Shown here: piece by piece, positions 13,756-48,445 of the stretch
How the letters are laid out: every line of letters begins with the position of its first letter
How positions within the stretch are numbered: position 1 is the stretch's first letter
DNA from: an uncultured delta proteobacterium
GTDB taxonomy: Bacteria > Desulfobacterota > Desulfomonilia > Desulfomonilales > Desulfomonilaceae
DNA length: 64,000 nt
Assembly (NCBI GenBank): GCA_963789265.1
Contig: CAWBKB010000005.1
Location: forward strand, 192,001-256,000
Direction of reading: 5' to 3'
The notes under the pieces: model-generated
The model's input: only the letters and a program-made list of their open reading frames with translations
Database searches by the model: none
What the model was told of the DNA's origin: nothing
Program-made: the position numbers and the translations under genes

Positions 13756-15760
13756 CTACACTTCGCAAGCCAAGGTGAAGCCACCATCAAGAGCGCTTCC
13801 AATACGTCCAACTTCTTTTGCATCGCCAATGGCGCACACATCCACGCCGGACTGCTCAAGTTTCCGGCTTAGAGAATTCTCCGGCCGCGAGCCCATTGCC
13901 AGCACTACCGAATCCGCAGGTATGGTGATGTCATTACCTTTGGAATCAGTGTATATTACCTTCTCCAAGGTGATATCTTTCATTTTCGCCTCGGTCACTA
14001 TGGTTACACCTCTCATTTTGAGTTCTTTAAGAAGCACCCAGCGAGTAGAAGGCCCAATATCCTGGCCAATCCGTGAGACCATCTCAATAACCGTCACCGT
14101 CTTTACGCCTTTGAGCATCAGTTCCCGAAGCACCTCGGGGGACTCTGCCTGGTGCATCGTGAGAAAATAGACCTGGCTCGGGGAAATCGTCCCTTTTGAA
14201 GCCAAGAAGACCGCTGTTTCCAGACCGACCGACCCTCCACCAACCACTACTACATTCGAACCTGTCTGAACCTTTCCCCTCAGAACATCCCAGGCCTGGA
14301 ACACGTTAGGGGCTTCCACCGCCTCTATGGGCGGCTTGAATGGAGCAGCGCCCGTGGCCACGACCACCAGATCAGGTTTTTCTGCTGCCACGAGCTCAGG
14401 CGTGACCTTCGTGCCTGTGCGCACATCTACCTCGTACTTGTGCAAAACAGCACGATAGTAGTCGAAGAGATAGTGGAAATCATGCTTATGGGTCGTTTCC
14501 GCGGACCAGTTGACTTGTCCTCCGATCTGCTGTTTCTTTCTCGCAAAGAATAATTTCGTGTCCACGCTGTGCCGCAGTGACCGCGAATTCGCATCCGGAC
14601 GGACCCGCGCCGGCCACAAGGATCTTCTTTGGGGACGCGGCCTTTACTATGACGGTCTCCTTTTCACGACCACACCTGGGATTGACCATGCAGCCAACGG
14701 GCTTTAATTGAAAAACGTGATCAAAGCACCTCTGGTTGCAGGCCACGCATCGACGAATTTCCTCGGCCCGCCCATCTCGCGCCTTGTTCACAAATTCTGG
14801 ATCGGCCAACATTCCTCTGGCAACCCCTACCAGATCGGCTACTCCCTCCCTGAGCACTTCTTCGGCTATGAAAGGGTCGTTGATACGGTTGCAGCCTATA
14901 ACCGGGATGCCGACGTTTTCTTTGATACCTCTTGCGAGGTAAACATAACCCGCTTGGGGGAGATCCATTGTTATCTGTGGAACTCGGCTCTCATGCCATC
15001 CTCCTGTAACGTTGATGCAGTCAGCCTCCGCTTTTTCCACCGCCGCGGCAAAGACACGTGCTTCCAGGTTGGTGTGGCTGTCGGGCACGAAGTCATTCCC
15101 CGCCACACGAACAATGACGGCCATGTCCGACCCCACTTCTTGTCGAACACGTTTGACCACTTCCAGCCCGAAGCGCATGCGGTTTTCCAACGGACCGCCA
15201 TAATCGTCCTCTCGCTTATTGGTTTTGGGGGAGAGAAACTGACATATCAGATAGCCCGCGGAGGCCAGCACCTCAACTGCATCAAACCCGGCCTGCTTGG
15301 CCCTTCGCGCAGCTTTGACGAAATCGTCCTGGACGCGTTCGATATCGTCCAGGGTCATAGGAGTTGTCTTTTGTCGCGTGAAATAGGTCGTGTACTCGGA
15401 AGGGGCAAGGGTGGGAAGCCCTCTAAGACCGCAGAAGGAGTAGGCACCCGCCATGTACAACTGCACCGCGGTTTTTGACCCGTTCCGATGTATAGCTTCT
15501 GTGAACCTTTGCAGCCCGGGAACGTAGCGATCGTCTTTGATGGAGAGCATCAAGCCGACACCCGATGCCTGATCGTTGATCTCCGCGCCGCCGATAATGA
15601 TCAATCCCGCGCCTCCTCGGGCACGGGTCGCGTAGAAATCGATGAAACGGTCCGTAACTTGTCCGTCGGGGGTGTAATTAAGGTGCATGGCCGTCATGAC
15701 AACTCTGTTGGACAGAGACATGGGACCTACGGAAATCGGCTCGAACAGTTTTGTAATCAA
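13756..15760 (-). CDS. NADH:flavin oxidoreductase / 2,4-dienoyl-CoA reductase (FadH-like); +1 frameshift near 14534
   Basis: OYE TIM barrel (AGFDAVE, GYLICQFLSP.TNKREDDYGG), Fe-S motif CVACNQRC..CMVNP, and two Rossmann motifs (GAGPSG, VVGGGSVGLETA) split across two ORFs. Confidence 0.88.
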
Positions 15761-16025: not shown

Positions 16026-16859
16026 TCACGCGCCTTTGAAATTTCCTTTTCTTTTTTCGAGATACGCGGAAATGGCCTCAAAAAGATCCTCCGATGGCAT
16101 AATCATGCTCGATCTCGCTGCATTGTAGTCCAGAGCCTGATCCATCGGCACCTCATCGTTGAAGAGGAAAACATCCTTGGCACCCTGGACCGCGAATGGC
16201 GGATTATCCGCTATTTCTATGGCCATTTCCAAAGCCTTGGTGTCGAGCGTGTCCTTATCCGGATATACGTTGTTCACCAGGTTGATGGCCCGGGCATGCT
16301 GGGCGTTGAACCGATGGCCTCGAAAAGCTATTTCGCGCGCATGCCCTTGCCCCACCACTTTCGGGAGCCGCTGCAGCCCTCCGACATCCGTGATAATGGC
16401 AAGCGTAGCCTCAGGAAGAGCAAACACGGTCTCTTCCGAACAGAGACGTATGTCGCAACACAGGATAAGTTCCAGTCCGGCGCCAAGGCAGTGGCCGTGT
16501 ATTGCCGCAATCGTGGGCTGTGAGAGGCGCTCCAGCCGCGTATGGATCGCTTGAACTTGCTTTACCTCTTTGAAGAGAGCCACCTTTTGGGCGGCATTCG
16601 CCGGGCCGGTGACCGTTGCTATTATCTTATTTTCAGGGCTCAGATCCAGACCTGCGCAAAAAGATTTGCCCGCGCCTGCCAGGAGTACGACCCTGGCCTC
16701 GGGGTCTTTTTCTGCCATTCCGATGGCCCGGTCCAGGTCCTTCCACAAGCTGAGACTCATTGCGTTCCGCTTTTGGGGCCTGTTAAGCGTGATAAAACCT
16801 ACCCGCCCATCCCTGTGGTAGGTCACGAGAGCCCCGGTTGCCGATACCTCCATGTCCAT
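16026..16859 (-). CDS. Enoyl-CoA hydratase/isomerase (crotonase family)
   Basis: Motifs ITLNRPQKRNAM, FCAGLDL, IAAIHGHCLGAGLEL..CCDIR and DVGGLQRL; GAGGAG RBS before the ATG at 16859. Confidence 0.9.
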   Translation of the reverse strand: MDMEVSATGALVTYHRDGRVGFITLNRPQKRNAMSLSLWKDLDRAIGMAEKDPEARVVLLAGAGKSFCAGLDLSPENKIIATVTGPANAAQKVALFKEVKQVQAIHTRLERLSQPTIAAIHGHCLGAGLELILCCDIRLCSEETVFALPEATLAIITDVGGLQRLPKVVGQGHAREIAFRGHRFNAQHARAINLVNNVYPDKDTLDTKALEMAIEIADNPPFAVQGAKDVFLFNDEVPMDQALDYNAARSSMIMPSEDLFEAISAYLEKRKGNFKGA

Positions 16860-16944: not shown

Positions 16945-19345
16945 TCACAATTCCTCTGATTCACTCCCGTATGCCCCATGTACAAGCTGTATTCCGACAG
17001 GCCTGCCACCCTTATGGATGGCCTCCCGGCCGAGTGCTGCATTTACCCTGAGATCCAGTACATGACGATCGAGAGAAGGGATCCGGGCTGAATCGGGCCG
17101 AGTCGCTTTGAGACACTCTAACAGCGTTTCCTGGAACTCCTTATCGGAAAGCTCCGGAATTGTTTCCAGCAATCTCATGGCCTCTTCAGATCTTTCCATG
17201 TTGAGAAGGCAGCGAACTCTTTTCAGCATGGAGGACGGTACTTCCTCTGAAATTGCCTGGTAATATTCCATAGCCCATGCGTACTTCCCTGCGTTGACCA
17301 GTGTGTCCGCCAATGCGTTCAGCGGGGTGGGCTTGCCTTCCAGCAAACCCGCCAAACTGCGCACGTTGTCGCGTTTATCCAATTTTGCCATCATGTGTAC
17401 CAGCATTAGAAAATGACCTGGAGTCCTCAGCAGAGCACCGGGGTCAGCATCACGCAAAGCCAGGTAGTAAAGGACCTCGTTTTGTTCTCGTAGCAAATCG
17501 AGATCGGGAAATGGATACGTGTTGGATATTCGGAGGTGCTTCACTTCATCGATGGTGCTTGCATTCACCGATATCAATACCTTGTGGATCTTTGCATGCA
17601 CTTGGATTTCTTTTCCCCGCAACTCTTCTTCAACGTAGTCATCGGGAAAAACAAAGTCGAAGTCAATCTCGTTTCCCTCTTTGGCGCCGACAAAACCCGC
17701 TTCAAAAGTTGGGAGCAAAAGCCCTCGTCCCAGCAACACATCCCAGTACTTTCCTGATATTCCTGTAAAGGGAACCCCTTGGATCCAACTCCGTGAGTCG
17801 AATATGATTCGGTCTGTGGGACCGGCCGAGGTTCCGCTCTCTCTAAAAAATCCCAAGGAGGAAATCAGCTCCTTCACCGCTGACTCTTCCCCATTAAGTG
17901 TTGCGCGGTATCCTTCCAAGAATTGTTCTAGCAGCGAAAACTCCTCAATGGCGCTGGCGGCAAGGGCCCCATACGCATGAAACATCGACTCATCCGATAG
18001 ATCCTCCCGATTCGTCAGCAAGAAATCCAGGATCTCAAATAAGCGCTGTTTGTAATAGACGTCTCTTTCCATCTGTTCATTGGCAAGGGCCCAAAGGTTG
18101 CGCACCTTTTTGATGTCCGCCTTTGACATTTGTTCAGTTTCGTACCGGTCCCCAACAGAGAGGTAAGTGGGTCTGTATCCGGGATGGGGCCTGATGCCGA
18201 AGCGTTTCGGGCCGTGTTGGTACACCGATCCAAAGTAAAGCTGCATTTGTTGTGAGCCTGAGTTCGATTGAATAGGGATTTCCAGTGAGCGTAGGAAATT
18301 CATGGTCTCACGCGCGTCATCGACAGTTTCACCCGGAAGCCCGAAAATTGAGAAAAGTTCCGCTTCCATACCCAGTGAATGAACAACCTTGATATTTTCT
18401 TCAAGCTGCCTCAAGAATATCCCCTTGTTGGTATTCTTGAGCACGCCGGGGCTTCCGGATTCGAGGCCGAACGCCACCGTGTCGGCTCCGGCTTGCGCCA
18501 GCTTCTTCAGCAGGGAAGGATCCACGAGATCGGCCCTGGTTTGGAGCCAGAACGGAGTGGTAATCTCCCTCCTGATTTTCTCTTCGAGTAGTCTCTCCGT
18601 TCTGTCCCTGTTCTTCGGTGAAATTGGGGTCGGCAAACCAGAACCGTTTTATTCCCTTTCCTGCGAGGAACTCCATTTCAGCTATTGTTCTTTCAACAGA
18701 ATGGCAGCGTACTTTACCTCCGCAAATGCGGGGAGTTATGCAGAACCAGCAAACATGTCTGCACCCCCTGGAGGAAAGGAGAATTGCCGTATTCTTTCCT
18801 TCCAGATTAAGCAGATTCGCCAAATAAGGGGAAGGATAGAAATCTAGATCTTCAGGCCCTTCCGGCACCGGACCGCTCTCGATGATGCGTCCGTCGCTCC
18901 TGCACGTAATTCCCGGGATCTCTTCAAGGTTCCCGCCCGCCTGAAGGGCCCGGCCTATTGCGGGCAGTATCACTTCGCCCTCTCCCCTTACGAGGGCATC
19001 CACGTCGCAGAGAGCTTCCAGGGCACCTGAAGGCATGGCCGATACCTGCGGACCGCCTAGAACCACCTGTATTTTGGGGTGCCTTGACTTGATGTACCGG
19101 CAGAGAAAGCGAATCCGGCTCATGGTGCTCTGATAGGCCGTGAACCCTACAACCCATGGGTCGATACGGCGAATCCACTTTTCAAGGTTCCTAAGGCTCA
19201 AGGGCCTGTCCCTAAGGTCATCGAGGATTATGCCGTCGAATCCGCCGGCCTTGAGCGCCGCAAGGATATAGCCCGTGGAGATAGGGATACTCTCTGACGA
19301 TTCATAGCCCACATCATGGTTCACATTGATAAAGAGAAAAGCCAC
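16945..19345 (-). CDS. B12-binding radical SAM protein with C-terminal trigger-factor FKBP-like domain and TPR-like helices; +1 frameshift near 18614
   Basis: Cobalamin-binding region (VGFTAY, VVLGGPQ, VRGEGE), SRGCRHVCWFC, FADPNFT and FGLESGS, followed by LLPTFEAGFVGAKEG..FDFVFPDDYVEEELRGKEI. Confidence 0.82.
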
Positions 19346-19461: not shown

Positions 19462-19749
19462 ATGAAAAAGATCAAGAGTCCGTGGTATGGAGCTTTGTGG
19501 ACACTGGTTTGGACGGCAGCCCTTATCTGGTTCCTTGCCTCAGGCATGTTCAATACAAGGGAATGCGTCGGGTTGGTCCTGATATGGTTGGTTCTTGTTG
19601 GTTTTACCGGCTATTTGATTCTGCGCCACCTGAAACATAGAGCGGGGCACGCGGTGGAGCCGCCATCACGTGTCGTTGCTCTCCCTGCACTGAACGCGCC
19701 CTGCCCATGCGGCTCCGGCAAAAAATACAAGCGCTGTTGCGGAGCCTGA
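19462..19749 (+). CDS. Small two-TM membrane protein with C-terminal SEC-C Zn-binding motif
   Basis: Two hydrophobic segments followed by NAPCPCGSGKKYKRCCG. Confidence 0.8.
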   Translation: MKKIKSPWYGALWTLVWTAALIWFLASGMFNTRECVGLVLIWLVLVGFTGYLILRHLKHRAGHAVEPPSRVVALPALNAPCPCGSGKKYKRCCGA

Positions 19750-19987: not shown

Positions 19988-20557
19988 CTATCTCGTCAAC
20001 CTGTACGTGCTTTCTATCGTGTTAATTACTTGTTGCCGCGCCTGATCCATCCCCCAACCACTATCCAGCAGACAGGTTAAATATAGCCTGGCGGTCATTT
20101 GCATCTCAGGCTCGGTCCGAGCCCTAGCAATCATCATGGGATACCGTGAGCAGTCAGGCCGCTGCTGCACTTGAGGTGGCGGGGGAGGCTGATAAGCCGG
20201 TTCTGGATGCCATTGCTGGAGGACCCGGCTGCTGGTAATGCTCGTGAGACCGCGACGCCCGTTTGCGCGAGGGAGCTGGAGCAGCATTTTCGGTACATAG
20301 GGCTTCACCGATCCGTAACGAAGGCTGTTGCTATTCTGCTGCTGGTACCGTCGCGAGTGCCGACGGTGTCGGGAATCAAGCGGTTGGGTCGAACCGGTGT
20401 CGAGGTGGTTCCCGCGGTTGTCGAATTCAGGGGCTTTGGGCACGCTGTATGGAAAATCCTGGGCCACGACACTCTGAGTGACCACAGTTCCTACCAGGAC
20501 CATAGCCACCGATAATACAATAACCATACCGAATCTCATCATAACAACGATCTCCAT
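19988..20557 (-). CDS. Secreted hypothetical protein, Q/P-rich with a C-terminal two-Cys helical domain
   Basis: Signal peptide (..SVVA|QDF). The middle part may carry compensating frameshifts. Confidence 0.6.
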   Translation of the reverse strand: MEIVVMMRFGMVIVLSVAMVLVGTVVTQSVVAQDFPYSVPKAPEFDNRGNHLDTGSTQPLDSRHRRHSRRYQQQNSNSLRYGSVKPYVPKMLLQLPRANGRRGLTSITSSRVLQQWHPEPAYQPPPPPQVQQRPDCSRYPMMIARARTEPEMQMTARLYLTCLLDSGWGMDQARQQVINTIESTYRLTR

Positions 20558-20761: not shown

Positions 20762-22540
20762 CTATCGGCCACCCGAACCGAACTTGTGAATCTTGTTTAG
20801 CAGACCCTGTCTCGACAGCCCCAACTGCTTCGCCGCGAGACTTCTGTTGCCGGCGCAGCTTTCGAGCGCTTCCTGAAGCATGGATTTCTCCATCCTTTCA
20901 GTAGCTTCTTTTAGAGTGAGAGGATTGGAAGTCGCCTTATCTTCAATCATTTTTTCAACCGAATTTCTTATACGAGGCGAAAGACAGCGAACCGACAAGT
21001 TTCCTCCGTCGCCCGCAAGTATATGGGCACGTTCGATCTCATTTTCCAATTCTCTCACGTTCCCCGGCCAGGGATAACGAACCAACAATTCAAGGACGGT
21101 CGGATCTAGACCGCGGACGGGTTTGCCGGTCAGCACAGTCAATTTGTCCAGAAAATGTAGAGCCAGCAAAGGGATATCATCGGCACGTTCGCGCAAAGGC
21201 GGGATCACAATGGGAAATACATTCACTCTGTAAAACAAGTCTTCGCGAAACATGCCTTGCTGGATTCGTTCGTTCAGGTCTCGGTTAGTTGCGGCAATAA
21301 GGCGTACATCAACAATCTGGGACCTGTTTTCACCTACAGGCTTTATTTCCCCGGACTGAATAGCGCGAAGCAGCTTCACCTGCATGGAGGGGGAGGTCGC
21401 TTCGATTTCATCCAGGAAAAGTGTCCCGCGGTGGGCCGCCTTGAACACCCCTACATGATCGGCTACCGCGCCGGTGAAAGCGCCTTTCCTGTGCCCGAAC
21501 AGTTCACTCTCAATCAGCTCCGACGGGATCGCGGCGCAGTTCAAGCTTACGAGTGATTCATTTACTCTCGGGCTAAGCCGGTGGATCGCTCGGGCCACCA
21601 GCTCTTTTCCTGTTCCGGATTCACCCTGTATCAGGACCGTAGTTTCAGTGGGCGCAACCTTACGGATTAGAGATCGAACTTCCTGCATGCCTGCGGCGCT
21701 TCCGATAATCTCTTCCAGCAAGTCACTGTGGTGAAGAGCCTGCTTCAGACCGACGTTTTCTTGCCTCAGTAAAGAAGCACTCTGTCTGAGATGATCCCAT
21801 TCCAGCGCATGCTCCATTGATCTAGCAGCCTGGGATGCGAGAATTTCAAGTATTTCCAAATCAATAGAAGTGAAGACTCCGGCACGCTTATTAAGCACCT
21901 GGAATACCCCTATTACGGGTCCCCCTGGGACGCGCAACGGCACACAAAGGAGGTTCTTTGTTCTGAACCCTGTCTGAGGATCAACCGCCTTGTTAAAGCG
22001 AGGGTCTTTGTACGTGTCGACGATGTTCAGCGATTCGCCGTGCGTAAACACCCACCCGGCAATACCGGACTGCCAAGGTATACGGATCTGATCGTGCTTT
22101 AGCCCCACCCCGAGGTGCGAATACAGTTCCTTGGTTTGGTGATCCGCCAGAAATATGGTCGCGCGTTCCGCATTCATGACGGAAGGGGCTTCCCTTATGA
22201 GAAGCTCAATCAGTGAACTCATATTCGTTTCGCTGCTAATCAAAATCCCCATCTTGAACAGCAGCGATATCCGTTCCAGATAAGAGCCGAGAGGTTTGGC
22301 TGGTCTCGTGAAGCGCTTCGATCCCTCTTCCATTCCCAGGGCTTCTTTGAGTAAGGTTATGTCAACATGAATGGTGATCGCTTGGACGAGTTCCTCCACC
22401 GAGATCTTGCCTTTCGACAGGAGAATCTCTTGAGGGGACCTTCCTGTCTCCTTTGCCTCATTAATGGCCTTCGCATAATCGTCTTTGCCTATTCTTCCCG
22501 TTTCCAGGAGGAGTCGGCCGATGGAATGGAGATCAATCAC
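20762..22540 (-). CDS. Sigma-54 enhancer-binding protein: MshEN-like + GAF + AAA+ + Fis HTH
   Basis: GESGTGKE, ESELFGHRKGAFTGA, LFLDEI, FREDLFYR, WPGNVRELEN and HTH AAKQLGLSRQGL. GAF region: GIAGWVF..DPRFNKAVD.QTGFRTKNLLCVPL..QVLNK. Probable start GTG at 22540 (GGAGAG RBS); the alternative is ATG at 22564. Confidence 0.92.
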   Translation of the reverse strand: MIDLHSIGRLLLETGRIGKDDYAKAINEAKETGRSPQEILLSKGKISVEELVQAITIHVDITLLKEALGMEEGSKRFTRPAKPLGSYLERISLLFKMGILISSETNMSSLIELLIREAPSVMNAERATIFLADHQTKELYSHLGVGLKHDQIRIPWQSGIAGWVFTHGESLNIVDTYKDPRFNKAVDPQTGFRTKNLLCVPLRVPGGPVIGVFQVLNKRAGVFTSIDLEILEILASQAARSMEHALEWDHLRQSASLLRQENVGLKQALHHSDLLEEIIGSAAGMQEVRSLIRKVAPTETTVLIQGESGTGKELVARAIHRLSPRVNESLVSLNCAAIPSELIESELFGHRKGAFTGAVADHVGVFKAAHRGTLFLDEIEATSPSMQVKLLRAIQSGEIKPVGENRSQIVDVRLIAATNRDLNERIQQGMFREDLFYRVNVFPIVIPPLRERADDIPLLALHFLDKLTVLTGKPVRGLDPTVLELLVRYPWPGNVRELENEIERAHILAGDGGNLSVRCLSPRIRNSVEKMIEDKATSNPLTLKEATERMEKSMLQEALESCAGNRSLAAKQLGLSRQGLLNKIHKFGSGGR

Positions 22541-25500
22541 GAATACTCTCCCCGGTTTTGCCATACAGAGCTATCTCGCCGGTCTGACCGTGAATAATCA
22601 TTTTACTCCCCACCACCACGTCATGTTCGTTGAATCGCACTATTTCGGGCTTGCCCGAAAACTTGGCTATCTGCCGAACCTGACCCACATAAACCTTGTC
22701 CAAGGATTTGGAGATATCCGCCGCGTGCGCTCCTCTGCCACCTAGATGGCTTATGAGAGCGGTAGCCACCGGAAGCGAAAAGATCTCTTCCATTATCTCC
22801 TCGGGAATAGGATCGTTAACCACAAAAATGAATCCGTCCAGTTTATCATGTTCCGGGAGACGTTCGTTCATGGCATCTATAATGGACTGGGCCTTACTGA
22901 TGTGCTTGAAAGGGGCAATTTGATTCCGATCGGTAACCATGATCCCTCTGAAAATTTTGCCGGAAACTCCCGTACCCTGCGCAATCACATCGTAGCCCGA
23001 CGAACTGAGAGGCGGGACTCTCTCTTTGCGCTCTCTATCCTTGCGAATCTGCAGAATGAAAACTTTCCCTTTTTCTATGGTGTACTCAAGACGAGTGTCA
23101 AAATGCAGCCGCTCCGCGGTCCGGAAGAGTACGGAATGAAGTTGCTTCCAAGCGTCAGGCATTTGAGAGGCGAGTGATTCCTGGGCCTTCCAGAGGTCGT
23201 ACACGGGAATCGTTGCCACCTTGCCGTCTACAACGTCGGTCCCCTGATCGCCTTGTGCGAAATCACCCCGAAGATCCATAGTGAAGGGATTGTAAGACAC
23301 AACACCCGTTCCCGAGGAATTGAGTTCCATGTTCCCGTAGACCATACCCTGAACGATGACCGGAGTGCGCCAATTCCCATGGATACCCGCCGCTTCTCTG
23401 TATTTGCTCGCTGCTCTTCCGTCATAGGAATGCAGCACGACGATGGCACAATGGATGAGAATGTCCAGGAATTGTCCCTTGTCAAGCAGCTCCACCACTT
23501 TGGGGGCCAACTCCGCAACTCGCGCCTTGTAATCGAATGCAAGACTCTTCATCTGCTCAGCGCTCATGTGGGCTTTGCGCCTCACTTTAAAACGTTCTTT
23601 GCGCTCATCGATGATTCCCTGAAACTCGTCTCTCTCCAAACCAAATACTGACTGGCTGAATTCCTGCAAGAAACGCCGATAACAATCGTATGCGAACCAA
23701 GGCCCCACTTTGGCAGCCAAAACTTCGGCCGTTTCATCGTTGATCCCAACATTGGTAATAGTTGTCATCATACCGGGCATGCTGACACGGGCCCCGGACC
23801 TCACTGAAAAGAGTGCGGGATTGGACGGATCACCCAAAGATCGACCCCAGAGCTGCCCCAGCTTGGCCACAGCGCGGCCCAACCCTTGTCTGAAGTCGGG
23901 GTTTGTCAACATTTCTTTCGGTTCCAGCAGGGATTGGTCTGTGGTGATGACAAAGTAAGGGGGGGTGTTTTCCGCGAATCGCAGCAAGGACGCCTTCAAT
24001 CCTATCCTGCAAGGTGAAATGTCTTTGGGGTCCGGAAAGTAAAAAGGTACCGAACGTAAAGGCCCCGGCCCTTTGCGAACGACCCTCTTACTGGACTCAG
24101 CAAGGCGCTGATTGAGAAAAAGCTCTATCTTATCTATGAAGGTTTCCAGGACCCTCAGGTTTCCATCTCGTGCCTGAAGATCGGATACATAGAGTGTTTT
24201 CAGATAGTTCTTGAAGAAATCGGTGTCGGGGACCTCTTTCAGGGTGGTCAAGTTCTTGAGCTTGCGCGGCAGTTTCTCCATCGGGCAGAAGGAAAGGAAA
24301 TTGTCAAAAGGCTCCTCGAACGAGCTTCGATAACTGACATATATATCATCGACCTCTTTCTTGATGATGGTCACCAGATCTCGCACTTTGTCCAGAGTCA
24401 GGCCGAGATCGCCGGCGCGGCGCAAATCGCGACCGCCTTGTTCCAAATAGAAACTCGAATGCCCGTTTACGGAGACTCCGCGCACCAGGCAATCGAGAAA
24501 GACGAGCGCATCCGCAAGATTCTCCAATGTAATTGTATCAAAATGAGTATTGTTTACGCTCGTGGCAAGGGTCTCCTGGAGTCCTTCAAGCTGGAGATCT
24601 TTATTGAAAGCCTCGAAACGTTCCTCAATGTATGTGGCTTTTTGCGCGTACGCATGTCCTGCCTTTTTCGCTCGCAAGATAATAGGCGTGCCGGGTCGCT
24701 CCCTGTTTATGAGCTCCATTTCCCGGGCCGCGTCTTCAGTCCCCTCCGTTAGGGTCACCGGCGCTGAAAGAGGTTCTGAAATATCGGGAGTGAGGAATTT
24801 TTGCTTGGTCTCTCCCCGCTCCAGAATGATTTGATCGAGACGGTTGAGGCCTTCCTCAGCCGTGGCGCCGGAGGCGGATTGGAGGACTATAAAATACTTC
24901 GCATACAAACCCTTGGCCAGCTCAATGACGTCCAGGACCATACGCCGGGAGAATTCCGGCCACGTCGGGTCGGAACGGTAGGGCGCAGTATCGAGGAATG
25001 CAAGCTGCATCATGCCTTCTTTTTCGGAAGGGTCTATTTTCAGGTCATCGAAGATGCGGCGGCACAGATCTCGCATCCCCTGCTCTTCCGGCATCGAGCA
25101 CCACTTGTTCATCGGCAGGTACGGCATTGATTCGGAGGGCATCCATTCCGCGATGGCTTCCGGTCGTCCCTCAGAAAAATATTTGACTATTCCCCGGCAA
25201 AAATAGAAATTTTCGATGCTTCCGCGCCAATGTATATCCCCGCGAAGCTTTCCCAGAAAGTTGCCGATGGGCTTTACACCTCGATTTGCCAACTCTTTCG
25301 CAAGCCCCGCTGCCGTGAGCCTCAGAGTGTCGAGCGGCCCTATATCCTTAAAAGAGTATGGAATCGCCTTTATAAGCGTCCGGATAGGGAAGTGCATAAC
25401 AGACGAGTTGGCCTGTAATAGCCTGGAGATCCAATATTGGATGAGGTCCTCATCGCACAGGCGCGTTTGGCCGATTTCGATCTGAATAACAAGATATGGT

Positions 25501-27017
25501 ACGAGGCGATGCATGATCCGCGGATTCGAGGCAATGATGGAGATCAAACACTTTATGTGTTGTGCGTGAGCCCGGTTTGCCCCTGATTCCTCGGCCAAGA
25601 CGAGGGGCTCGCCCGTATCGTCATCCTCGATGGTATATTTCTTGTCCAAAGGCTGAATTATCGGCCGTTTCACAAAATGGTCGATAAGCTCTTGGGCCAT
25701 AAGGAAATACCCGGATTTACCGAGCGTGACACCCAGTGATTCCAGCGCGTTCAGCGAGGATATCACTTCGCCGGTGTCTTTTGACGAATACGCGCGCTCC
25801 AGAAAGACATTGGCAAATGTATTTACAAGGTTCCTGGATGCTTGCTTTCTGGTCTTCTCCAGTCTGACTACTATGCGGCAAAGCCCGTCGATGAACAGCT
25901 CTTTGACTTCCGGTTTATCCACTGCAATGATCTGAGCAGCCAAAATCTCTGCAAAGGCCTCTTGCAAGTCCATCGGAAGCTCATCAATCATTTCCTGGAA
26001 AGCCGAAAGAATTGCTCTCCATTCTTCCGCCAGATTCTTGATGAATGAAATGCCCTTTGTAATCTCGCCTTCGTCTATTTGACCCCGTCCATCCAATGCG
26101 CTTTGATAGGTTTGCCTGCGTTTCTCGATTTCTTCGGCCGAGTGGAGGTTGATCCTTTCCAGGATCTCTTTCCGGAAGCGTTCCTTGGATGCAAAATTCT
26201 CGACCTCCAAAGCGCTTTCCAACCTTTTCACGAGACCTTCGGGACAAGCGCGTATTTCTCCCAGAGCAGTGATCAATGCCTGAACCGCCAATCTGTCCAC
26301 GTGCGAAGTCAGAGCGAATTTGATCTCATCCGACCGCTTCTTCAGGGCTGACCCGATCTCGGAAACTTCCAGAACGCGTCGTTCAAAAGAGTTCAAGGAG
26401 GTGCGAAACGGCTCTTGAGCCAAGAAATCGATGACGGATTCCACGAACGGCTGGTACTGCTGAAATGTCTTATCATTGGCAGTATTCAGAATGCCGGCCA
26501 CCAGACGTGACAAGACGTGTTCTCCTTCAGACCGGGCAGCCGCATCAAACGGCTGACGCACCGCTGCAAACAAATAGCTGAAGAGGATCTCCATTACAGA
26601 GGGAAGGTGGTCGCCCAGCGACTCGTCATCTCTATCCAGCGAATATCGGGAGATCAATCGGACTACTTCCAACCAGTTGGGGATTTCGTACAGCGCTGAT
26701 ATGAGGTTTTCACGGATGGCAAGCCGCCGGCCTTCAAAGGAAGTGAGATAGACAAGCTCTTCCAAAGATTCACGCGAAAACCGGCTGAAGAGCGTAAGTC
26801 GCGAATCATATTGCCGCAAGGCGACCAGATAAGGGGAAGCCTCCTTACCCGTACGGTCGAGGATCATTAAGACTGTAGGGAGAGCCTCAACCGCGAGCGT
26901 CGTTTGATCCCCGAACTTGATGCCGGAAAGATTGATGACCTCGGCCATTCCGGCGATCTGGTACGGATTGAGCGGTTCGTGATCGCTGATCTGCCGTATG
27001 AGATTCCTGACTTCCAC
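22533..27017 (-). CDS. Atypical PPDK-family dikinase: ~1000-aa unknown N-terminal region + ATP-grasp + phospho-His domain, no pyruvate/PEP barrel
   Basis: Motifs SVRSGARVSMPGMM, FAYDCYRRF, VQGMVYGN..SGTGV, QGTDVVDG, EYTIEKGKVFILQIR and GGRGAHAA. The ORF ends right after IIHGQTGEI. Confidence 0.8.
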   Translation of the reverse strand: MEVRNLIRQISDHEPLNPYQIAGMAEVINLSGIKFGDQTTLAVEALPTVLMILDRTGKEASPYLVALRQYDSRLTLFSRFSRESLEELVYLTSFEGRRLAIRENLISALYEIPNWLEVVRLISRYSLDRDDESLGDHLPSVMEILFSYLFAAVRQPFDAAARSEGEHVLSRLVAGILNTANDKTFQQYQPFVESVIDFLAQEPFRTSLNSFERRVLEVSEIGSALKKRSDEIKFALTSHVDRLAVQALITALGEIRACPEGLVKRLESALEVENFASKERFRKEILERINLHSAEEIEKRRQTYQSALDGRGQIDEGEITKGISFIKNLAEEWRAILSAFQEMIDELPMDLQEAFAEILAAQIIAVDKPEVKELFIDGLCRIVVRLEKTRKQASRNLVNTFANVFLERAYSSKDTGEVISSLNALESLGVTLGKSGYFLMAQELIDHFVKRPIIQPLDKKYTIEDDDTGEPLVLAEESGANRAHAQHIKCLISIIASNPRIMHRLVPYLVIQIEIGQTRLCDEDLIQYWISRLLQANSSVMHFPIRTLIKAIPYSFKDIGPLDTLRLTAAGLAKELANRGVKPIGNFLGKLRGDIHWRGSIENFYFCRGIVKYFSEGRPEAIAEWMPSESMPYLPMNKWCSMPEEQGMRDLCRRIFDDLKIDPSEKEGMMQLAFLDTAPYRSDPTWPEFSRRMVLDVIELAKGLYAKYFIVLQSASGATAEEGLNRLDQIILERGETKQKFLTPDISEPLSAPVTLTEGTEDAAREMELINRERPGTPIILRAKKAGHAYAQKATYIEERFEAFNKDLQLEGLQETLATSVNNTHFDTITLENLADALVFLDCLVRGVSVNGHSSFYLEQGGRDLRRAGDLGLTLDKVRDLVTIIKKEVDDIYVSYRSSFEEPFDNFLSFCPMEKLPRKLKNLTTLKEVPDTDFFKNYLKTLYVSDLQARDGNLRVLETFIDKIELFLNQRLAESSKRVVRKGPGPLRSVPFYFPDPKDISPCRIGLKASLLRFAENTPPYFVITTDQSLLEPKEMLTNPDFRQGLGRAVAKLGQLWGRSLGDPSNPALFSVRSGARVSMPGMMTTITNVGINDETAEVLAAKVGPWFAYDCYRRFLQEFSQSVFGLERDEFQGIIDERKERFKVRRKAHMSAEQMKSLAFDYKARVAELAPKVVELLDKGQFLDILIHCAIVVLHSYDGRAASKYREAAGIHGNWRTPVIVQGMVYGNMELNSSGTGVVSYNPFTMDLRGDFAQGDQGTDVVDGKVATIPVYDLWKAQESLASQMPDAWKQLHSVLFRTAERLHFDTRLEYTIEKGKVFILQIRKDRERKERVPPLSSSGYDVIAQGTGVSGKIFRGIMVTDRNQIAPFKHISKAQSIIDAMNERLPEHDKLDGFIFVVNDPIPEEIMEEIFSLPVATALISHLGGRGAHAADISKSLDKVYVGQVRQIAKFSGKPEIVRFNEHDVVVGSKMIIHGQTGEIALYGKTGESIRD

Positions 27018-32765: not shown

Positions 32766-34260
32766 CTAGCGGCTCCCGGCACCCTGTTGGAGCTTCTCCA
32801 GGACCTGATCGATCGTGAAGCTCGCCGCCTTCTGGCGCGGCGGGAACTCCTTGAATGTCGCCAGGAAGTCACCCACGTACTTCTGCGCGGGAAGGAACAG
32901 GTAGACGTGATCGAGCACCCAATCCCAGTAAGTGTTCGATGTGATGTCCGCGCGCTCAAAGGGGTCCGTGCGCAGGTTGAAGAGCTTCGGAAACCGCAAA
33001 ACTACCAACGGTTCCTGCCAAATCCGAAGGGTGCCTTGCATCCGCTGCTCCATGAAGATTAGCTTCCAGTTGTCGTAGCGCACGGCCATCAGGTCGCCGT
33101 CGTCGGAGAAGTAGAAGAATTCCACGCGCGGGCTCTTCTCCTCTTCACCTTTCAAGTAGGGCAGGAGATTGTAGCCGTCGAGGTGCACTTTGAACTTCTT
33201 GCCGCCAGCCTCGTGGCCCTTAAGTAACTTGTCCTTGATGGTCGGTTCGCCCGCAGCCGCCACTAGAGTGGGCAACCAGTCCATATGGCTGATGATTTCA
33301 TTAGATACGGTGCCGGGCTTGATCACACCGGGCCAGCGCAACATTGCAGGAACCCGGAATGCCCCTTCCCAGTTGGAGTCCTTCTCATTGCGGAAGGGCG
33401 TCATACCCGCGTCAGGCCAGGAGTTCATGTGCGGTCCGTTGTCGGTGCTGTACATGACGATCGTGTTGTCGGCGATGCCGTGCTCGTCCAGCTTCTGGAG
33501 CAGCGCGCCCACGAGTTTGTCGTGGTCGATCATGACGTCGTGGTATTCCGACTGCCAGCGATGGGACTGGCCTATGCTCTCAGGCTTGGCATGCGTGCGG
33601 AAGTGCATGTGCGAGGTGTTGAACCATACAAAGAACGGCGTCTCTCTCTTGACTTGGCGGTCAATAAAGTCCGTTGCCTTGTCAAAGACCTCGTCGTCGA
33701 TGGTCTCCATCCGCTTCTTCGTCAATGGGCCGGTGTCTTCAATGCGACCGTCTGCGTAACACTGGAGCACGCCGCGCGGACCGTAGTTCTTCTTGAAGTT
33801 CGGGAAGTCCGATTCCGGGGGATAGTCGCGGCAGTTCTGGCTCCTCACATGCATTCAGGTGGTAAAGAAAGCCAAAGAACTCGTCGAAACCATGGTTGGT
33901 CGGCAGGAATTCGTCCTTGTCGCCGAAGTGATTCTTGCCGAACTGACCTGTGGCGTAACCCAGCGGCTTCAGTAGCTCGGCGATAGTGGGATCCTCAGCG
34001 CGCATGCCGAGGTCGGCGCCCGGCATTCCTACCTTGCTCAATCCCGTGCGGAAAACGCACTGCCCGGTGATGAACGCCGACCGCCCTGCTGTGCAACTCT
34101 GCTCGCCGTAGCAATCTGTGAACAGCACCCCTTCCTCGGCGATGCGATCGATGTTCGGTGTCCGATAGCCCATCATGCCGCGATTGTAAGCACTGATGTT
34201 CCAGTAGCCGATATCATCTCCCCAGATGACCAAAATGTTGGGTTTATTCTGTGTCGCCAT
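32766..34260 (-). CDS. Arylsulfatase (Cys-type); +1 frameshift near 33829
   Basis: Motifs [45 protein letters not shown] and [17 protein letters not shown]. Confidence 0.9.
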
Positions 34261-34299
34261 AGATCCTCCTGAATTTGTTGTGAAAAGTGGATTGGTCAA

Positions 34300-35722
34300 T
34301 CATCGCTCCGGAACTTCTGCTTCAAGGTTTTGCTGGCCTGGTTGGCCACATCGCACCTCCTTCCGCCCGCGATTGGATTCGGTTAGTTGGTTTCCTTGAG
34401 CTCTCTTACCCTCAACGGACTCCTCCCTACCGTGACATCGCTTGAACTTAAGACCGCTGCCGCATGGGCAGGGATCATTGCGACGTGCTTTGGCAAATGT
34501 CTCGGCCAGTTTGACATCCTCACTCACCAGGATCTGCATTACCTGGGTGGCCGGCCATCCCCGACGAAGCAGCGCCGCCATGATTTTGATAGGTCGGTCG
34601 ATGTGATGGAAAAACGCCTTATAACCTGCACACAGATAATTTAATCCCGGCTCCCCATGCGGTGTCGTGCGAAAACGGTTTTTCGGACACTCCCCATGGC
34701 AGGCAAATCGGACCTCGCATTCAGTACAGTAACGTGGCAACATATCTAGCTTGTCGCGGCCAAACTTGAGCTGCTGATTGGAGCCGACCAATTCGATCAT
34801 GTGGGTTTGCTGGAGGTTGCCCAGCAAGTAGTTCGGCTCGACAAAATGGTCGCAAGAGGTACAAATCGCCGTTATGTTCCAGGGCGAGTCCATGACCGCA
34901 CGTAGCATCGAAGACACACATTCCGCATGATGGCAGGCCGAGCCAATTTCTCAGGGCTGCCTCGAACGTTTGCACAAACACCTTGCCCACATCGTTCCGC
35001 ACCCATTTGTCAAAGATGGTGATCAGGAAGTTTCCGAGTTGCTCCGGCCTCACAGAGCGATCCGAAACGCTGTTCCCGTCTTGGTAGAGAGTGACGCTCC
35101 CTTCGTTTAGGCGCTCGATGACCGGAATGAACTGAATCCAGGTGGTACCGGCCTCGTCACGGAGAAATTGGTAGACCTCGAGCGGGTGATCGGCATTTAC
35201 ACGATTAACGCTCGTCAGAATGTTGTATTCAACTCCATGTTTCTGCAGCAGCCGGAGGCCTTGCATCACCGTTTCAAAGGTGGGCCTTCCTCTCTTGTCT
35301 ACCCGGTGTGTATCGTGCAGTTCACGAGGACCGTCTATACTGATACCAATCAGGAAATTGTTCTCACGGAAGAACTCGCACCATTTGTCGGTTAACAGTG
35401 TGCCGTTTGTTTGCATGGTGTTCTCAAAGGTCATGCCTGGCTTCTTGTATTTGCTCTGGTATTCTATGGCACGCCGAAAGAAGTCGATCCCCATCAGGGT
35501 GGGTTCTCCACCTTGCCAGGCAACCGTCACTTTGTCCGTGAGATGAGACCCGATGAGCTGGCGGATATAGACTTCCAGCACTTCGTCACTCATGCGAAAG
35601 TGACTTCCGGGGTAAAGAAGTTGTTTGTTCAGAAAGAAGCAATAGGAGCAGTTCAGGTTGCAAATCGCACCCGTTGGCTTGGCCAACACATGAATCCGCC
35701 GGGGTCTTTCTTGGTTCGTCAT
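34300..35722 (-). CDS. Anaerobic sulfatase maturase (radical SAM/SPASM) with C-terminal SEC-C motif; +1 frameshift near 34858
   Basis: Motifs AKPTGAICNLNCSYCFF, WQGGEPTL, QTNG, NGDLY/SCDHFV, C..C.VRFACHGECPKNR, NYLCAGY and RNDPCPCGSGLKFKRCHG. Confidence 0.92.
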
Positions 35723-36452
35723 GACTGGCACTCCATGAAAGCTTGTTGGCACCTAATCAGTGACGGATATTCGTAGACACTGTTCAGGGTCAAATCCGCT
35801 GGTAAGAATCACCGCGTCCCGTGTTCGCCCATTTCTTCGATCCCGGCTCAAATTGAAATTGTGCGGCGGTCTTGCCGTTTCGGGAGTGTTTGGCCTGGCA
35901 ACCAGTCATTTGATGGTTGCTCGGACCACGAAAAGGTCGCCGCGTTGTCTATGAGAGCCTCAATTGAGCCAAAGAGTGTCATTACGTAGATTGAAAAATG
36001 AATTCAACATGTCCGTTTGTTGACAAGAAACAACAACAATCTGCTTATAATTATTATACGTGCCAAACTAAGTAACTCTGTCTCAAGGGAATAATTCCTA
36101 CAATCATCCTTCCCGTATTAAGCATCGCCGCGTGAGACCGATCTGTCAACCATGTTTTTCTCATGGCTCCGACACTTCACACAGCCTCGGACAATCTCAT
36201 CTGTGGCAGCCGATGCACCTCCGGGATGCAGCGGGAAGCCCGTGAGGCCGAAGGTGGTGCGGCGGAGACTTTGCGCCGGGAATTTAGGTTAGGGCCTACA
36301 AAGAGAATGGTTTACTGATTTCGCCGGAACGAGCGGCCAACGGTTCGGTTAAAATCTTAACCGAAAACCCGAGACGCTTTCATGGCCGGATCGCAAACGC
36401 CTAAGGACTCCCTTTCGCAAATACGGTGACGTTAAAAAAACCTGCACCGAAG

Positions 36453-46927: not shown

Positions 46928-48445
46928 ATGGCCGCCCAACGATCTGCGTTGCTGATTTCTCTAATTGACACTACGGACAATCTTGGGCTTAAATACGTAC
47001 ATTCAGCCCTCATCAAGCAGGGATTCAGATCTCTGATCCTATTTCACACCGCTGAAGATACCTCCTATTTCAATGCCGTCGCGGATTTCGTAAAGGAAAG
47101 CAAAGTCGATGCGGTCGGCATCAGCCTCATGAGCCGTTTCTTCTACACCGCGGTCGGGTTGACTGATGCCATCAGGAACAGGTGTGGCGACAGCGTTTCC
47201 GTTGCATGGGGAGGAATCCACCCGACTATCGATCCCAAGGGGTGCGAAGGTCACGCGGATTATGTTTGCGTTGGGGAAGGTGAGGAATTGTTCGGGGAAT
47301 TTCTCAGAGGCTTAGACGCCAAAAGCTTATCCGAACGAACCTCAGCGACAGGCGCAAGTACTATCAGCCAGTCTTCAGCGAGCCCTGTGGTCGAAGATTT
47401 GGATGCCTTGCCTTTCCCGGAATTCTTGCCCGCGGATGCATGGGTAACTGACAGGGGGCGAATAGCCAAACTGACTCACGCGCTTGTGAGGAAGCACAAC
47501 CGGCACAACACGGCGTACCTGTCGGTGATGACCTCTCGAGGCTGCCCTTTTAGCTGCAGTTACTGCTGTAATAACCTGCTTCACGCCATATATGGCAAGA
47601 AGATACGAAAGAGGAGCCCAGAGAGTGTAATCCAAGAGATTGAAATGAATTTAAGTCGCTCCGACATAAGTTTTCGCTACCTCAATGTCTACGACGACTG
47701 CTTTACAGCGCATTCTCCCGAGTGGTTGGAAACTTTCGTTAATAGTTACAAGCATATAGGTATCCCACTAATTTTTAGAGCTATTCCTCAATTCATCACG
47801 AGGGAGAAAATCGCGATTTTGAAAGATGCCCCTTGCGGATTCGCACTGATTGGTCTTCAGAGCGGCAGCGAGCGGACGCTGCGAGACGTGTACCAGAGGA
47901 AGCATTCTCAAAAGTCTTTTGTGCAATGCTCGCAGCTACTTGATGAGCACAGCATTCCGACTGTCTACGATGTCATCGTGGACAATCCTTATGAGACGAC
48001 AGCCGACATCAAAGAAACGGCCAAAGTGATCGCAGGGTTGCCCAGCACAGCTTATGTGTCTCTAGCTTCCCTCACTTTTTACAAGTACACGGCCATGTAC
48101 GACAAAGCGAAAGCAGACGGCTTTTCTGTTGACAACCATCTGATCAAAAACCAGGACTCCTGGAACAAATCCAGCAAGGAGGTTCAGGCAATAAAATTCG
48201 CAGTTTTCCTGGGCGAAGAAAAAGCCATGAAGGTGCTCAACGGAGCAACCTCATTCGAGAGAATTCAGTTTAAGCTTCTCAGTGTGCTTGTTGCGAAGTT
48301 CTTGGAACCTCTGCGATATTTGAAACTCATGTACTTGTCGTACGGCAGAAATAAAATCGCGTTTATGGGCCTCTTGTTAGTTCATGCAAGAGATTTCGGG
48401 AAAAGGTACTTCTCGCTCGCTCAGACGAATAGGCATGTGCACTGA
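46928..48445 (+). CDS. B12-binding radical SAM protein
   Basis: Motifs WGGIHPT, VCVGEGE, TSRGCPFSCSYCCN, DDCF and GLQSGS. Confidence 0.9.
   Translation: MAAQRSALLISLIDTTDNLGLKYVHSALIKQGFRSLILFHTAEDTSYFNAVADFVKESKVDAVGISLMSRFFYTAVGLTDAIRNRCGDSVSVAWGGIHPTIDPKGCEGHADYVCVGEGEELFGEFLRGLDAKSLSERTSATGASTISQSSASPVVEDLDALPFPEFLPADAWVTDRGRIAKLTHALVRKHNRHNTAYLSVMTSRGCPFSCSYCCNNLLHAIYGKKIRKRSPESVIQEIEMNLSRSDISFRYLNVYDDCFTAHSPEWLETFVNSYKHIGIPLIFRAIPQFITREKIAILKDAPCGFALIGLQSGSERTLRDVYQRKHSQKSFVQCSQLLDEHSIPTVYDVIVDNPYETTADIKETAKVIAGLPSTAYVSLASLTFYKYTAMYDKAKADGFSVDNHLIKNQDSWNKSSKEVQAIKFAVFLGEEKAMKVLNGATSFERIQFKLLSVLVAKFLEPLRYLKLMYLSYGRNKIAFMGLLLVHARDFGKRYFSLAQTNRHVH

Follow-up and report, generated by a model that had tools for sequence, protein, structure and literature searches.

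A candidate protein-modifying enzyme of Desulfomonilaceae: a predicted class B radical SAM protein whose TPR-like scaffold carries an inserted trigger-factor-type FKBP domain

The radical SAM gene described here occupies positions 16945-19345 on the minus strand of the window, that is, of the whole 64,000-nucleotide stretch of DNA that was analysed, and comprises about 799 codons after removal of an extra base at 18614. As assembled, it is represented by two open reading frames, 18401-19345 and 16945-18636. Directly downstream on the same strand lies a gene of the enoyl-CoA hydratase/isomerase family (16026-16859, with 16859 as the likely start; PF00378, E 5.9e-49), followed by the gene for a FadH/BaiCD-type Fe-S flavoenzyme with OYE and FAD/NAD domains (13756-15760, minus strand), which is split by a second frameshift in the window and forms one 673-codon frame in locus L001. 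On the other side, a divergently transcribed gene (19462-19749, plus strand) encodes a 95-amino-acid protein for which two membrane helices are predicted and which carries a SEC-C zinc motif at its C-terminus (Pfam SEC-C, E 1.6e-9). When the 64-kb window was scanned for the sigma-54 promoter consensus, no site was found near the radical SAM gene: with one mismatch allowed there were three matches against 2.4 expected, all of them away from this gene.

The earlier note had placed a frameshift near 18614, and it could indeed be located there: the extra base is an A on the coding strand within GAAGAAC, and it breaks the frame. One short-read contig, otherwise identical, lacks exactly one letter at this position (contig depth 2.3), whereas 18614 lies outside the coverage of sequencing runs X2 and X3. 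The 26 aligned relatives, which are 762-826 amino acids long (mostly about 799), run uninterrupted across the break (FADPNFTE-NRDRTE). Joined by one Glu codon, the two pieces (243 and 555 codons) match the closest relative in length, at 799 codons, and dN/dS against that relative is 0.099 upstream of the break (243 codons) and 0.133 downstream of it (555 codons). Because the short-read contig lacks the base, the relatives are uninterrupted and dN/dS is close to 0.1 on both sides, we conclude that the frameshift is very probably a consensus error of the assembly and that the organism itself carries an unbroken gene. A real frameshift, making the gene a pseudogene in its source, would agree with the two overlapping frames of the assembly as given and with the depth of only 2.3 of the correcting contig, but it is very improbable, since that contig is without precisely the base that restores the frame of the relatives, dN/dS speaks against it, and at least two further window genes, the FadH-like gene and a sulfatase gene, are split in the same way in an assembly whose nine contigs suggest long-read data.

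The N-terminal part of the protein forms the catalytic core. A cobalamin (B12)-binding domain (PF02310; 18956-19288, minus strand, residues 20-130 of the N-terminal frame) was detected with E 1.6e-16 and a score of 60.6 bits (cut-off 32.1), as is typical of class B enzymes. The radical SAM core (18292-18775, minus strand) was matched by PF04055 in both reading frames, with the frameshift falling inside it; in the intact relative P0002 it is a single stretch (residues 191-351, 85.9 bits). The sequence contains the CxxxCxxC iron-sulfur cluster motif as CRHVCWFC (18740-18763, minus strand), and its three cysteines show no variation across 31 aligned sequences. By its domain layout, the protein is thus a class B radical SAM enzyme, for which the use of cobalamin in catalysis is predicted from sequence.

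The same core, an N-terminal B12 domain followed by the CxxxCxxC barrel, is found in class B enzymes that act on proteins or peptides, namely those of TIGR04014, TIGR03975, ApyD (NF050148) and CysS (PDB 9n1b; match with E 1.6e-17). TIGR04014 is the methyl-coenzyme M reductase (MCR) glutamine C-methyltransferase, and TIGR03975 and ApyD are RiPP C-methyltransferases. In the profile search, none of the NCBIfam equivalog cut-offs was reached: the best radical SAM score of relative P0002 was 120.5 bits for ApyD (cut-off 750), and TIGR04014 and TIGR03975 gave 106.5 and 103 bits (cut-offs 360 and 282). The scores for the equivalogs ApyD, HpnJ, MCR glutamine C-methyltransferase, BchE, the ladderane lipid radical SAM enzyme, PhpK, HpnR and the TsrM-type enzymes were at most about one third of the respective cut-offs. 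Since the families acting on lipids or small molecules scored like the peptide-directed ones (HpnJ, 112.8 bits; BchE, 105 bits), the core can be assigned to none of them.

The remainder of the protein is a helical module that carries an FKBP domain. In the AlphaFold2 model, a helical block A (17857-18123, minus strand; helices 43-131 of the model) lies ahead of a trigger-factor-type FKBP (PPIase-fold) domain (17560-17853, minus strand), identified by profile, alignment and structure-model matches, and a TPR-like helical block B (17011-17553, minus strand; helices 233-413) lies behind it. The initial reading, in which the FKBP domain was simply followed by TPRs, was therefore right about the helices that follow but missed the block that precedes: in the model, the FKBP domain has a helical block on either side. 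In relatives, the block A region is matched by TPR_14/TPR_19 (P0136, residues 462-500; P0135, residues 276-318). For block B, TPR_19 was weak in the window and above its cut-off in P0136, and ANAPC3 was above its cut-off in P0135.

The FKBP assignment draws on several profiles and on the model. Pfam FKBP_C scored 16.8 bits on the window segment against a gathering score of 21.1, passed in five of the eight distant relatives scanned (22.3-34.4 bits), and had no match at E ≤ 0.01 in the close relatives P0002 and P0063; precomputed annotation assigns it to seven of the 120 proteins listed. The trigger factor profile TIGR00115 (tig) matched with 62.9 bits against a cut-off of 180.2, covering profile positions 148-257 of 410 only, and structural matches to trigger factor were confined to residues 149-246. 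The fused domain has the predicted FKBP fold, a five-stranded sheet around a short helix. Positions 177, 185, 198 and 221 of E. coli trigger factor correspond to F, W, F and Y in the fused domain, and these residues are invariant among the relatives; F177, F185, F198 and Y221 of trigger factor are presumably its PPIase pocket residues. Across 26 relatives, 24 of the 90 columns of the FKBP domain are invariant, and its mean column conservation (0.788) is close to that of the radical SAM core (0.805) and above that of helical block B (0.686). The order of class B radical SAM core, trigger-factor-type FKBP domain and TPR-like helices that had been read from the sequence is thus borne out by profiles, alignment and the AlphaFold2 model, and we regard it as near certain that the protein consists of a B12 domain, a radical SAM barrel and a helical, TPR-like scaffold with an inserted trigger-factor-type FKBP domain.

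The fused domain differs from complete trigger factor in lacking the ribosome-binding N domain and the C-terminal arm (no Trigger_N or Trigger_C Pfam match), and in having Ser and Val at trigger factor positions 168 and 233. A complete tig gene is present elsewhere in the genome of the window (375 bits). A recent copy of this host trigger factor was ruled out as the source of the fused domain, which shares no more than 25% identity with the host PPIase domain in an alignment of 68 residues. We also considered a fusion origin from a separate TPR protein of about 600 amino acids, whose gene follows that of the nearest stand-alone radical SAM relatives. No homology between it and the fused module was found (hhalign probability 1.7%, BLASTP E 0.49), so that this origin is unsupported.

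Other systems resemble parts of this architecture. The FKBP-TPR immunophilins (FKBP51, FKBP52, FKBP38, XAP2 and plant FKBP42) are eukaryotic co-chaperones without a radical SAM core, and their TPRs come after the FKBP domain, whereas the radical SAM enzyme has helices on both sides of it; joint alignment gave an rmsd of 11-14 Å, showing that the domain arrangement differs. RimO, which methylthiolates ribosomal protein S12 with an accessory YcaO, is likewise a radical SAM enzyme that acts on a folded protein with YcaO help, and YcaO-TPR genes flank the radical SAM gene in two distant clades; RimO and the S12-type YcaO gave weak NCBIfam matches. In contrast to the enzyme described here, RimO is cobalamin-independent and has a TRAM domain, and the genome of the window gave no YcaO with the query used, which produced only matches to the TPR part. 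In RRE/SPASM maturases such as PqqE and MftC, a substrate-binding domain is fused to the radical SAM core. The fusion logic is shared, but their RRE is a winged helix where FKBP and TPR are found here, and no RRE was detected in the radical SAM protein by Pfam search. To our knowledge, the TIGR04014, TIGR03975, ApyD and CysS enzymes have no FKBP or TPR module. The claim that no enzyme with such an architecture has been characterised held up: a full-text literature search for the radical SAM/FKBP/TPR architecture returned no relevant paper, and no NCBIfam equivalog scored at its cut-off.

The gene is present in 68 of 70 genomes assigned to Desulfomonilaceae by record title, including all 36 high-quality ones, and in all 26 genera; the genome of the window has a single copy. 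Distant relatives that are 25-31% identical in the module retain the architecture. Within the family, the 95-amino-acid membrane protein adjoins the radical SAM gene in 51 of 55 testable loci, the hydratase gene is kept in 48 of 54 and the FadH-like reductase gene in 42 of 49, counts that come from one bacterial family and hence not from independent loci. The estimated gap between the radical SAM gene and the hydratase gene has a median of 53 nt (35 loci), and the order radical SAM gene, hydratase, reductase recurs in metagenome loci of the same type. Matches spanning the membrane part of the 95-amino-acid protein were found, in a sample of 401 genomes, only in the family genomes (8 of 8). Its N-terminus, MKKIKSPWYG, is nearly invariant in the alignment and contains basic and aromatic residues and an invariant proline, and we consider this two-helix protein a candidate partner or substrate of the radical SAM enzyme.

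A different neighbourhood is seen around the distant relatives. YcaO-TPR genes flank architecture-bearing relatives in two separate distant clades, a DsrC gene adjoins relatives in one distant clade, another clade has a gene for a PrmA-like protein methyltransferase in 12 of its 31 loci, and in one locus genes for NarJ-like chaperones lie beside a relative. These neighbours favour a protein substrate, in a context that comes only from relatives 25-31% identical in the module. In the genome of the window, dsrC is absent from beside the radical SAM gene, the three dsrC-family matches being 217 kb off or on other contigs.

The intact gene thus encodes a cytoplasmic enzyme of about 799 amino acids whose cobalamin domain and CxxxCxxC radical SAM barrel make up the catalytic core and whose C-terminal 430 residues make up the TPR-like scaffold with its inserted FKBP domain. 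We propose that this C-terminal module is a clamp for polypeptides. An unfolded stretch of one particular protein, proline-containing and basic or aromatic, would be gripped by the FKBP pocket and the TPR groove, and the B12/radical SAM core would then modify the held segment radically. C-methylation would be the most likely modification, by analogy with class B enzymes known to act on proteins and peptides. The best client candidates in Desulfomonilaceae would be the co-inherited two-helix membrane protein, by way of its cytoplasmic N-terminal tail, and the neighbouring FadH-like Fe-S flavoenzyme or hydratase. Both the chemistry and the choice of client are guesses. According to PMC8719866, the reported signature of trigger-factor clients is basic plus aromatic residues, and the N-terminus of the 95-amino-acid protein, with its invariant proline, fits the signature as given there.

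How probable is such a protein-directed function? The initial suggestion of a protein- or peptide-directed enzyme remains plausible in that conservation of the FKBP domain equals that of the core and protein-related genes lie near distant relatives, but it is weakened by the hydratase and the FadH-like reductase downstream: the conserved co-directional neighbours in Desulfomonilaceae are acyl-CoA enzymes, a small-molecule context. TPR and FKBP domains can also act in assembly or regulation instead of substrate capture. We therefore put the chances that the enzyme acts on a protein at about even, and the proposal as a whole, from intact enzyme through polypeptide clamp to radical modification of a specific protein, could equally well prove right or wrong. 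A bolder version is rather doubtful: that, as the first known case, a cobalamin radical SAM enzyme has adopted a chaperone domain, the trigger-factor PPIase, along with TPRs to clamp its client. The enzymes would then form a protein-maturation class with clade-specific clients (DsrC or a ribosome-linked protein; in Desulfomonilaceae the KKIKSPW(Y) tail or the Fe-S flavoenzyme), and in these relatives of sulfate reducers a housekeeping protein would receive a radical modification not seen before.

The acyl-CoA neighbours suggest instead a non-protein substrate, whether small molecule, acyl-CoA or lipid intermediate, in a pathway shared with the hydratase and the FadH-like reductase, with the FKBP-TPR module merely assembling a complex or tethering the enzyme to the membrane through the SEC-C protein. 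The kept gene order and the short gap to the hydratase gene agree with this, as do thiolase and HMG-CoA-synthase-like genes near the nearest stand-alone relatives, which are without the module, and the fact that several class B families (among those scoring like the peptide-directed ones, also HpnR and the ladderane enzyme) act on lipids or small molecules. We nevertheless consider such a substrate unlikely, because 6 of the 54 testable loci carry other downstream genes, for example for an aminotransferase or a sigma-54 regulator, module-bearing relatives in other clades have no hydratase or reductase nearby, and conservation of the FKBP domain on a par with the catalytic core exceeds what a tether needs. 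Less probable still is that the module serves the enzyme itself, as an intramolecular chaperone, an active-site lid or a site where cofactor-delivery proteins dock, and binds no substrate: it accounts for over half of the protein, it is retained in relatives only 25-31% identical in it, and its closest match, the trigger-factor PPIase, is a client-binding domain.

The reactions catalyzed by class B radical SAM enzymes are among the most difficult in biology, and only a handful of protein substrates have been identified for them. In the present enzyme, the presumed substrate-binding part is itself informative: a trigger-factor-type FKBP domain in a TPR frame, conserved like the core and encoded by a single-copy gene in nearly every genome of the family. 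If the substrate is an acyl-CoA handled together with the hydratase and the reductase, the enzyme would add a new B12-dependent step to anaerobic fatty-acid or alicyclic metabolism. Should the module instead bind a protein, it would represent a new mode of client recognition by radical SAM enzymes, analogous to the RRE of RiPP maturases, and point to a new post-translational modification in anaerobes that are important for sulfur cycling and dehalogenation.

The radical SAM gene (window 16945..19345, minus strand) is called as two overlapping open reading frames, the first of 314 amino acids (18401-19345, minus strand) and the second of 563 amino acids (16945-18636, minus strand). Pfam assigns residues 20-130 of the first frame to a B12-binding domain (60.6 bits, cut-off 32.1); the Radical_SAM domain begins at the end of this frame and is completed by residues 15-115 of the second (52.7 bits). 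The DNA at 18740-18763 (minus strand) encodes the cluster motif CRHVCWFC. The window holds a second, unrelated class B radical SAM gene with B12-binding and Radical_SAM domains (46928-48445, plus strand, 505 amino acids), which adjoins a glycosyltransferase and ABC-2 transporter gene cluster.

The earlier note had placed a frameshift near 18614. Across the break the DNA reads ...TTC ACC GAA GAA CAG... in the first frame and ...AAG AAC AGG GAC AGA ACG GAG... in the second. Taking one A out of GAAGAAC restores the frame and gives FTENRDRTE, the reading of the closest relative (locus L001), and all 26 aligned relatives carry an unbroken FADPNFTE(N/D)R.RTE. Among public contigs over 18300-18900, a short-read contig of sequencing run X1 (151 bases, depth 2.3) equals the window sequence minus one letter at 18614, and the letter it omits is exactly the frame-restoring base; this is a single low-depth contig that may derive from the sample used for the genome assembly. 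Relative to L001, whose protein is 87% identical, dN/dS was 0.099 for the 243 codons that precede the break and 0.133 for the 555 codons that follow it, and 243 + 1 + 555 gives 799 codons, the length of the closest relative. At least two more genes of the window are split likewise. One, the FadH-like gene (13756-15760, minus strand), forms overlapping frames of 424 and 287 amino acids and is a single 673-codon frame in L001; this is probably a second frameshift, less than 5 kb from the first, and another assembly error. A sulfatase gene forms overlapping frames at 32766-33854 and 33739-34299 (minus strand), which match positions 141-300 and 1-133 of the Pfam Sulfatase profile. The genome comprises 6.06 Mb in 9 contigs. 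The dN/dS values, the other split genes and the 9-contig assembly agree with the X1 contig, and we attribute the frameshift to a consensus error in a long-read assembly, the long-read origin itself being presumed. Beside the split sulfatase gene lies a radical SAM gene (34721-35752, minus strand, 343 amino acids), an adjacency that suggests an anaerobic sulfatase-maturating enzyme.

The trigger-factor FKBP pattern described in the earlier note is present in residues 272-353 of the second frame (17578-17823, a few bases from where it had been placed). The Pfam matches in this region were weak: FKBP_C covered residues 271-349 (E 0.0089, 16.8 bits, cut-off 21.1) and TPR_19 reached 19.8 bits (cut-off 25). 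When the 97-amino-acid segment was compared with all PDB sequences by phmmer, eight matches were obtained at E ≤ 10, seven of them named trigger factor and the eighth (7zgi) a chloroplast trigger factor by its title; the best were Vibrio trigger factor (1t11, 1.9e-10) and the isolated PPIase domain of the E. coli protein (1l1p, 4.3e-10). The NCBIfam tig model matched residues 270-383 (E 2.4e-17), with profile positions 148-257 of 410 only. Searching the C-terminal 434 residues against 1.84 billion representatives yielded 2116 proteins at E ≤ 0.001; beyond the members of the enzyme family itself, the matches listed were mostly proteins of ~400-480 amino acids aligned at positions ~140-260. All four of these that we scanned had FKBP_C: P0166 and P0172 are typical trigger factors, P0152 has two FKBP stretches and Trigger_C, and the flagellar hook protein P0158 has three FKBP stretches. 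On the basis of the PDB, NCBIfam and wide protein searches, we conclude that the FKBP domain is real and of the trigger-factor type. The likeness is restricted to the PPIase domain, as Pfam found neither Trigger_N nor Trigger_C in the two frames and no structural match to the trigger-factor arms was found for the module.

Helices do follow the FKBP domain, as had been claimed, but the simple order of FKBP and then TPR does not hold: the domain (17560..17853) is inserted between one helical block at 17857..18123 and another, TPR-like block at 17011..17553 (minus strand). In an ungapped alignment, E. coli trigger-factor residues 177, 185, 195, 198 and 221 (F, F, I, F, Y) align with F290, W298, L308, F311 and Y334 of the second frame; four of these are invariant among the relatives, at least 90% of which share L308, while F168 and F233 of trigger factor are replaced by Ser and Val. 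We take these seven trigger-factor positions (168, 177, 185, 195, 198, 221 and 233) to line the PPIase pocket. Towards the C-terminus, the His-Gly of a P.VHG motif (H553 and G554, 16975-16980, minus strand) is invariant in 27 of 27 aligned sequences, in a tail that is otherwise variable and of low confidence.

A complete tig gene is present elsewhere on the same contig (L101, C5:721199-722419 of the window's genome, 375 bits), and its PPIase domain is only 25% identical to the fused one, which rules out a recent copy of the host trigger factor. The host domain appears the less canonical of the two, reading YLSDFDAKLEG in the BLASTP alignment where the fused domain reads LLPTFEAGFVG and E. coli trigger factor MIPGFEDGIKG.

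A word-indexed search scored 7999 candidates, of which 203 proteins reached E ≤ 0.001. The 120 proteins listed, next to one row for the window's own gene call, were 58-87% identical to the window protein and mostly 787-836 amino acids long, and where source names were given these were Desulfomonile or Desulfomonilaceae. Their automatic names were 'radical SAM protein', 'anaerobic Mg-protoporphyrin IX monomethyl ester cyclase' and 'YgiQ', with one UniRef entry named 'peptidylprolyl isomerase'. The C-terminal module was found in 68 of 70 whole genomes of the family (E ≤ 1e-25), including all 36 of high quality and all 26 genera, and in one copy in the window's genome. Mean column conservation within the family was 0.805 for the radical SAM core, 0.788 for the FKBP domain, where 24 of 90 columns do not vary, and 0.686 for the helical block that follows it. 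Within its family the gene is nearly universal, and it is single-copy, intact and under strong constraint. Across an evenly drawn phylum sample, 19 of 401 genomes had the module (E ≤ 1e-15), eight from this family and 11 from six others, one of which was positive in 6 of 7 genomes; the out-of-family modules were 26-32% identical, most in open frames of ~780-800 amino acids. The FKBP_C cut-off was passed by five of eight distant proteins scanned (22.3-34.4 bits). The ESM Atlas holds an 84-member cluster of 779-amino-acid proteins (Radical_SAM 100%, B12-binding 99%, FKBP_C 69%) and many B12 radical SAM clusters with TPR and without FKBP. The encoded protein is a class B radical SAM core joined to a helical-repeat scaffold that bears a trigger-factor-type FKBP domain.

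By catalytic core, the nearest relatives (42-47% identical over residues 9-182 of the second frame) are stand-alone proteins of 428-455 amino acids without the FKBP-TPR module; like the window enzyme, they matched no NCBIfam equivalog. Just downstream of the stand-alone gene, four of six loci examined (L070, L073, L075, L078) encode a separate TPR protein of ~600 amino acids with no detectable homology to the fused module, sometimes with a Thi4-family gene in the interval; the stand-alone genes face thiolase and HMG-CoA-synthase/DUF35-like genes nearby.

Neighbours in Desulfomonilaceae were counted in those of 61 genome loci (>80% of the second frame) that had enough flank; all come from a single bacterial family and are non-independent. 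An enoyl-CoA hydratase family gene (16026-16859, minus strand) lies directly downstream in 48 of 54 loci, followed by the FadH/BaiCD-type Fe-S flavoenzyme gene (13756-15760, minus strand) in 42 of 49. The radical SAM stop and the hydratase start are separated by an estimated 53 nt (median of 35 loci, with the starts guessed from alignment). Six loci lack the hydratase and have other genes there, including a class III aminotransferase and a sigma-54 regulator. A small divergent gene (19462-19749, plus strand) lies directly upstream in 51 of 55 loci, and a 189-amino-acid protein of no family (19988-20557) is encoded further upstream in 35 of 53. The same pattern recurs in metagenome loci of this type. 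Farther upstream, in 15-21 related loci, lies a pair formed by a GAF/sigma-54 activator gene (20762-22564) and a gene overlapping its end (22533-27017, minus strand) for a 1494-amino-acid protein, whose sole family match is a pyruvate phosphate dikinase ATP-binding domain in its last third (residues ~1015-1328).

The small divergent gene encodes a protein of 95 amino acids (62-109 in relatives). Its N-terminus, MKKIKSPW/YYG, hardly varies: P7 is the same in every sequence, and M1, K2, K3, I4, K5, S6 and Y9 are shared by at least 90%. The protein also has two hydrophobic helices and, at its C-terminus, a SEC-C zinc motif (Pfam E 1.6e-9). In a 12-locus subclade (L035, L036, L039, L040, L044, L046, L048, L051, L052, L057, L059, L068) the SEC-C tail is lost and the protein ends after the second helix (62-67 amino acids) with its N-terminus and both helices kept; therefore, the conserved part is the N-terminal tail with the helices and not SEC-C. 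Among the matches listed in the 401-genome sample (a further 655 fall outside the list), those that span the membrane part, starting at model position 1 or 2, were all in the eight genomes of the window's family, and the others listed began at position 35 or later and covered the SEC-C motif only. PMC8719866, which cites Patzelt 2001, describes basic and aromatic residues as characteristic of trigger-factor clients. The sequence of the N-terminal tail matches this signature, which provides a lead.

The architecture has other neighbours in distant clades. In clade one (one genus of the phylum sample with metagenome loci L107 and L108; L093-L095, L107, L108), the radical SAM gene comes after a YcaO-TPR gene and lies close to thrS-infC-rplT-pheS. 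Among NCBIfam models, the YcaO-TPR gene matches the McrA-glycine thioamidation YcaO best (148.7 bits, below cut-off). The radical SAM gene is convergent with dsrC, and the encoded DsrC, with its two-cysteine C-terminal arm ending CKIAGLPKPTGCI, could be the client there. With the query used, no YcaO domain was matched in the window's genome, and its dsrC-family genes are 217 kb off or on other contigs. In clade two (31 loci; raw counts, many contigs short), the recurrent neighbours are a CxxCxxCC metal-binding protein in 17 loci, a PrmA-like protein methyltransferase in 12 (PF06325, E 2e-46), YcaO proteins in 10, a 209-amino-acid TPR protein in 9 and, directly upstream, a conserved 115-amino-acid protein of no family in 9. 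A conserved cluster (L112, L118, L128, L132, L135-L137, L140, L141, L170, L181 and others) comprises the CxxCxxCC protein, the 115-amino-acid protein, the FKBP-TPR radical SAM enzyme, an opposite-strand 123-amino-acid zinc-ribbon-like protein and the PrmA-like methyltransferase, with YcaO genes on one or both sides. Two genes for NarJ-like chaperones occur at one further distant locus, together with a second B12-binding protein and a ferredoxin. To our knowledge, the characterized YcaO proteins all act on the backbone of peptides or proteins; the target of PrmA methylation is a ribosomal protein. Such neighbourhoods somewhat favour a protein client across the wider family.

In agreement with the earlier note, no publication describing an enzyme of this architecture turned up in the full-text literature searched, with most subscription journals outside its scope; the few papers retrieved appeared to use the terms in unrelated contexts. 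Methylation is the default chemistry of class B enzymes; BchE-, HpnJ- and AprD4-type chemistries scored alike for this core. The main rival reading, a small-molecule role together with the adjacent hydratase and reductase, seems to us improbable. We give roughly even chances to the module holding a polypeptide for the radical SAM core to modify; in Desulfomonilaceae, one candidate client is the N-terminal tail of the small membrane protein, and another is the adjacent Fe-S flavoenzyme.
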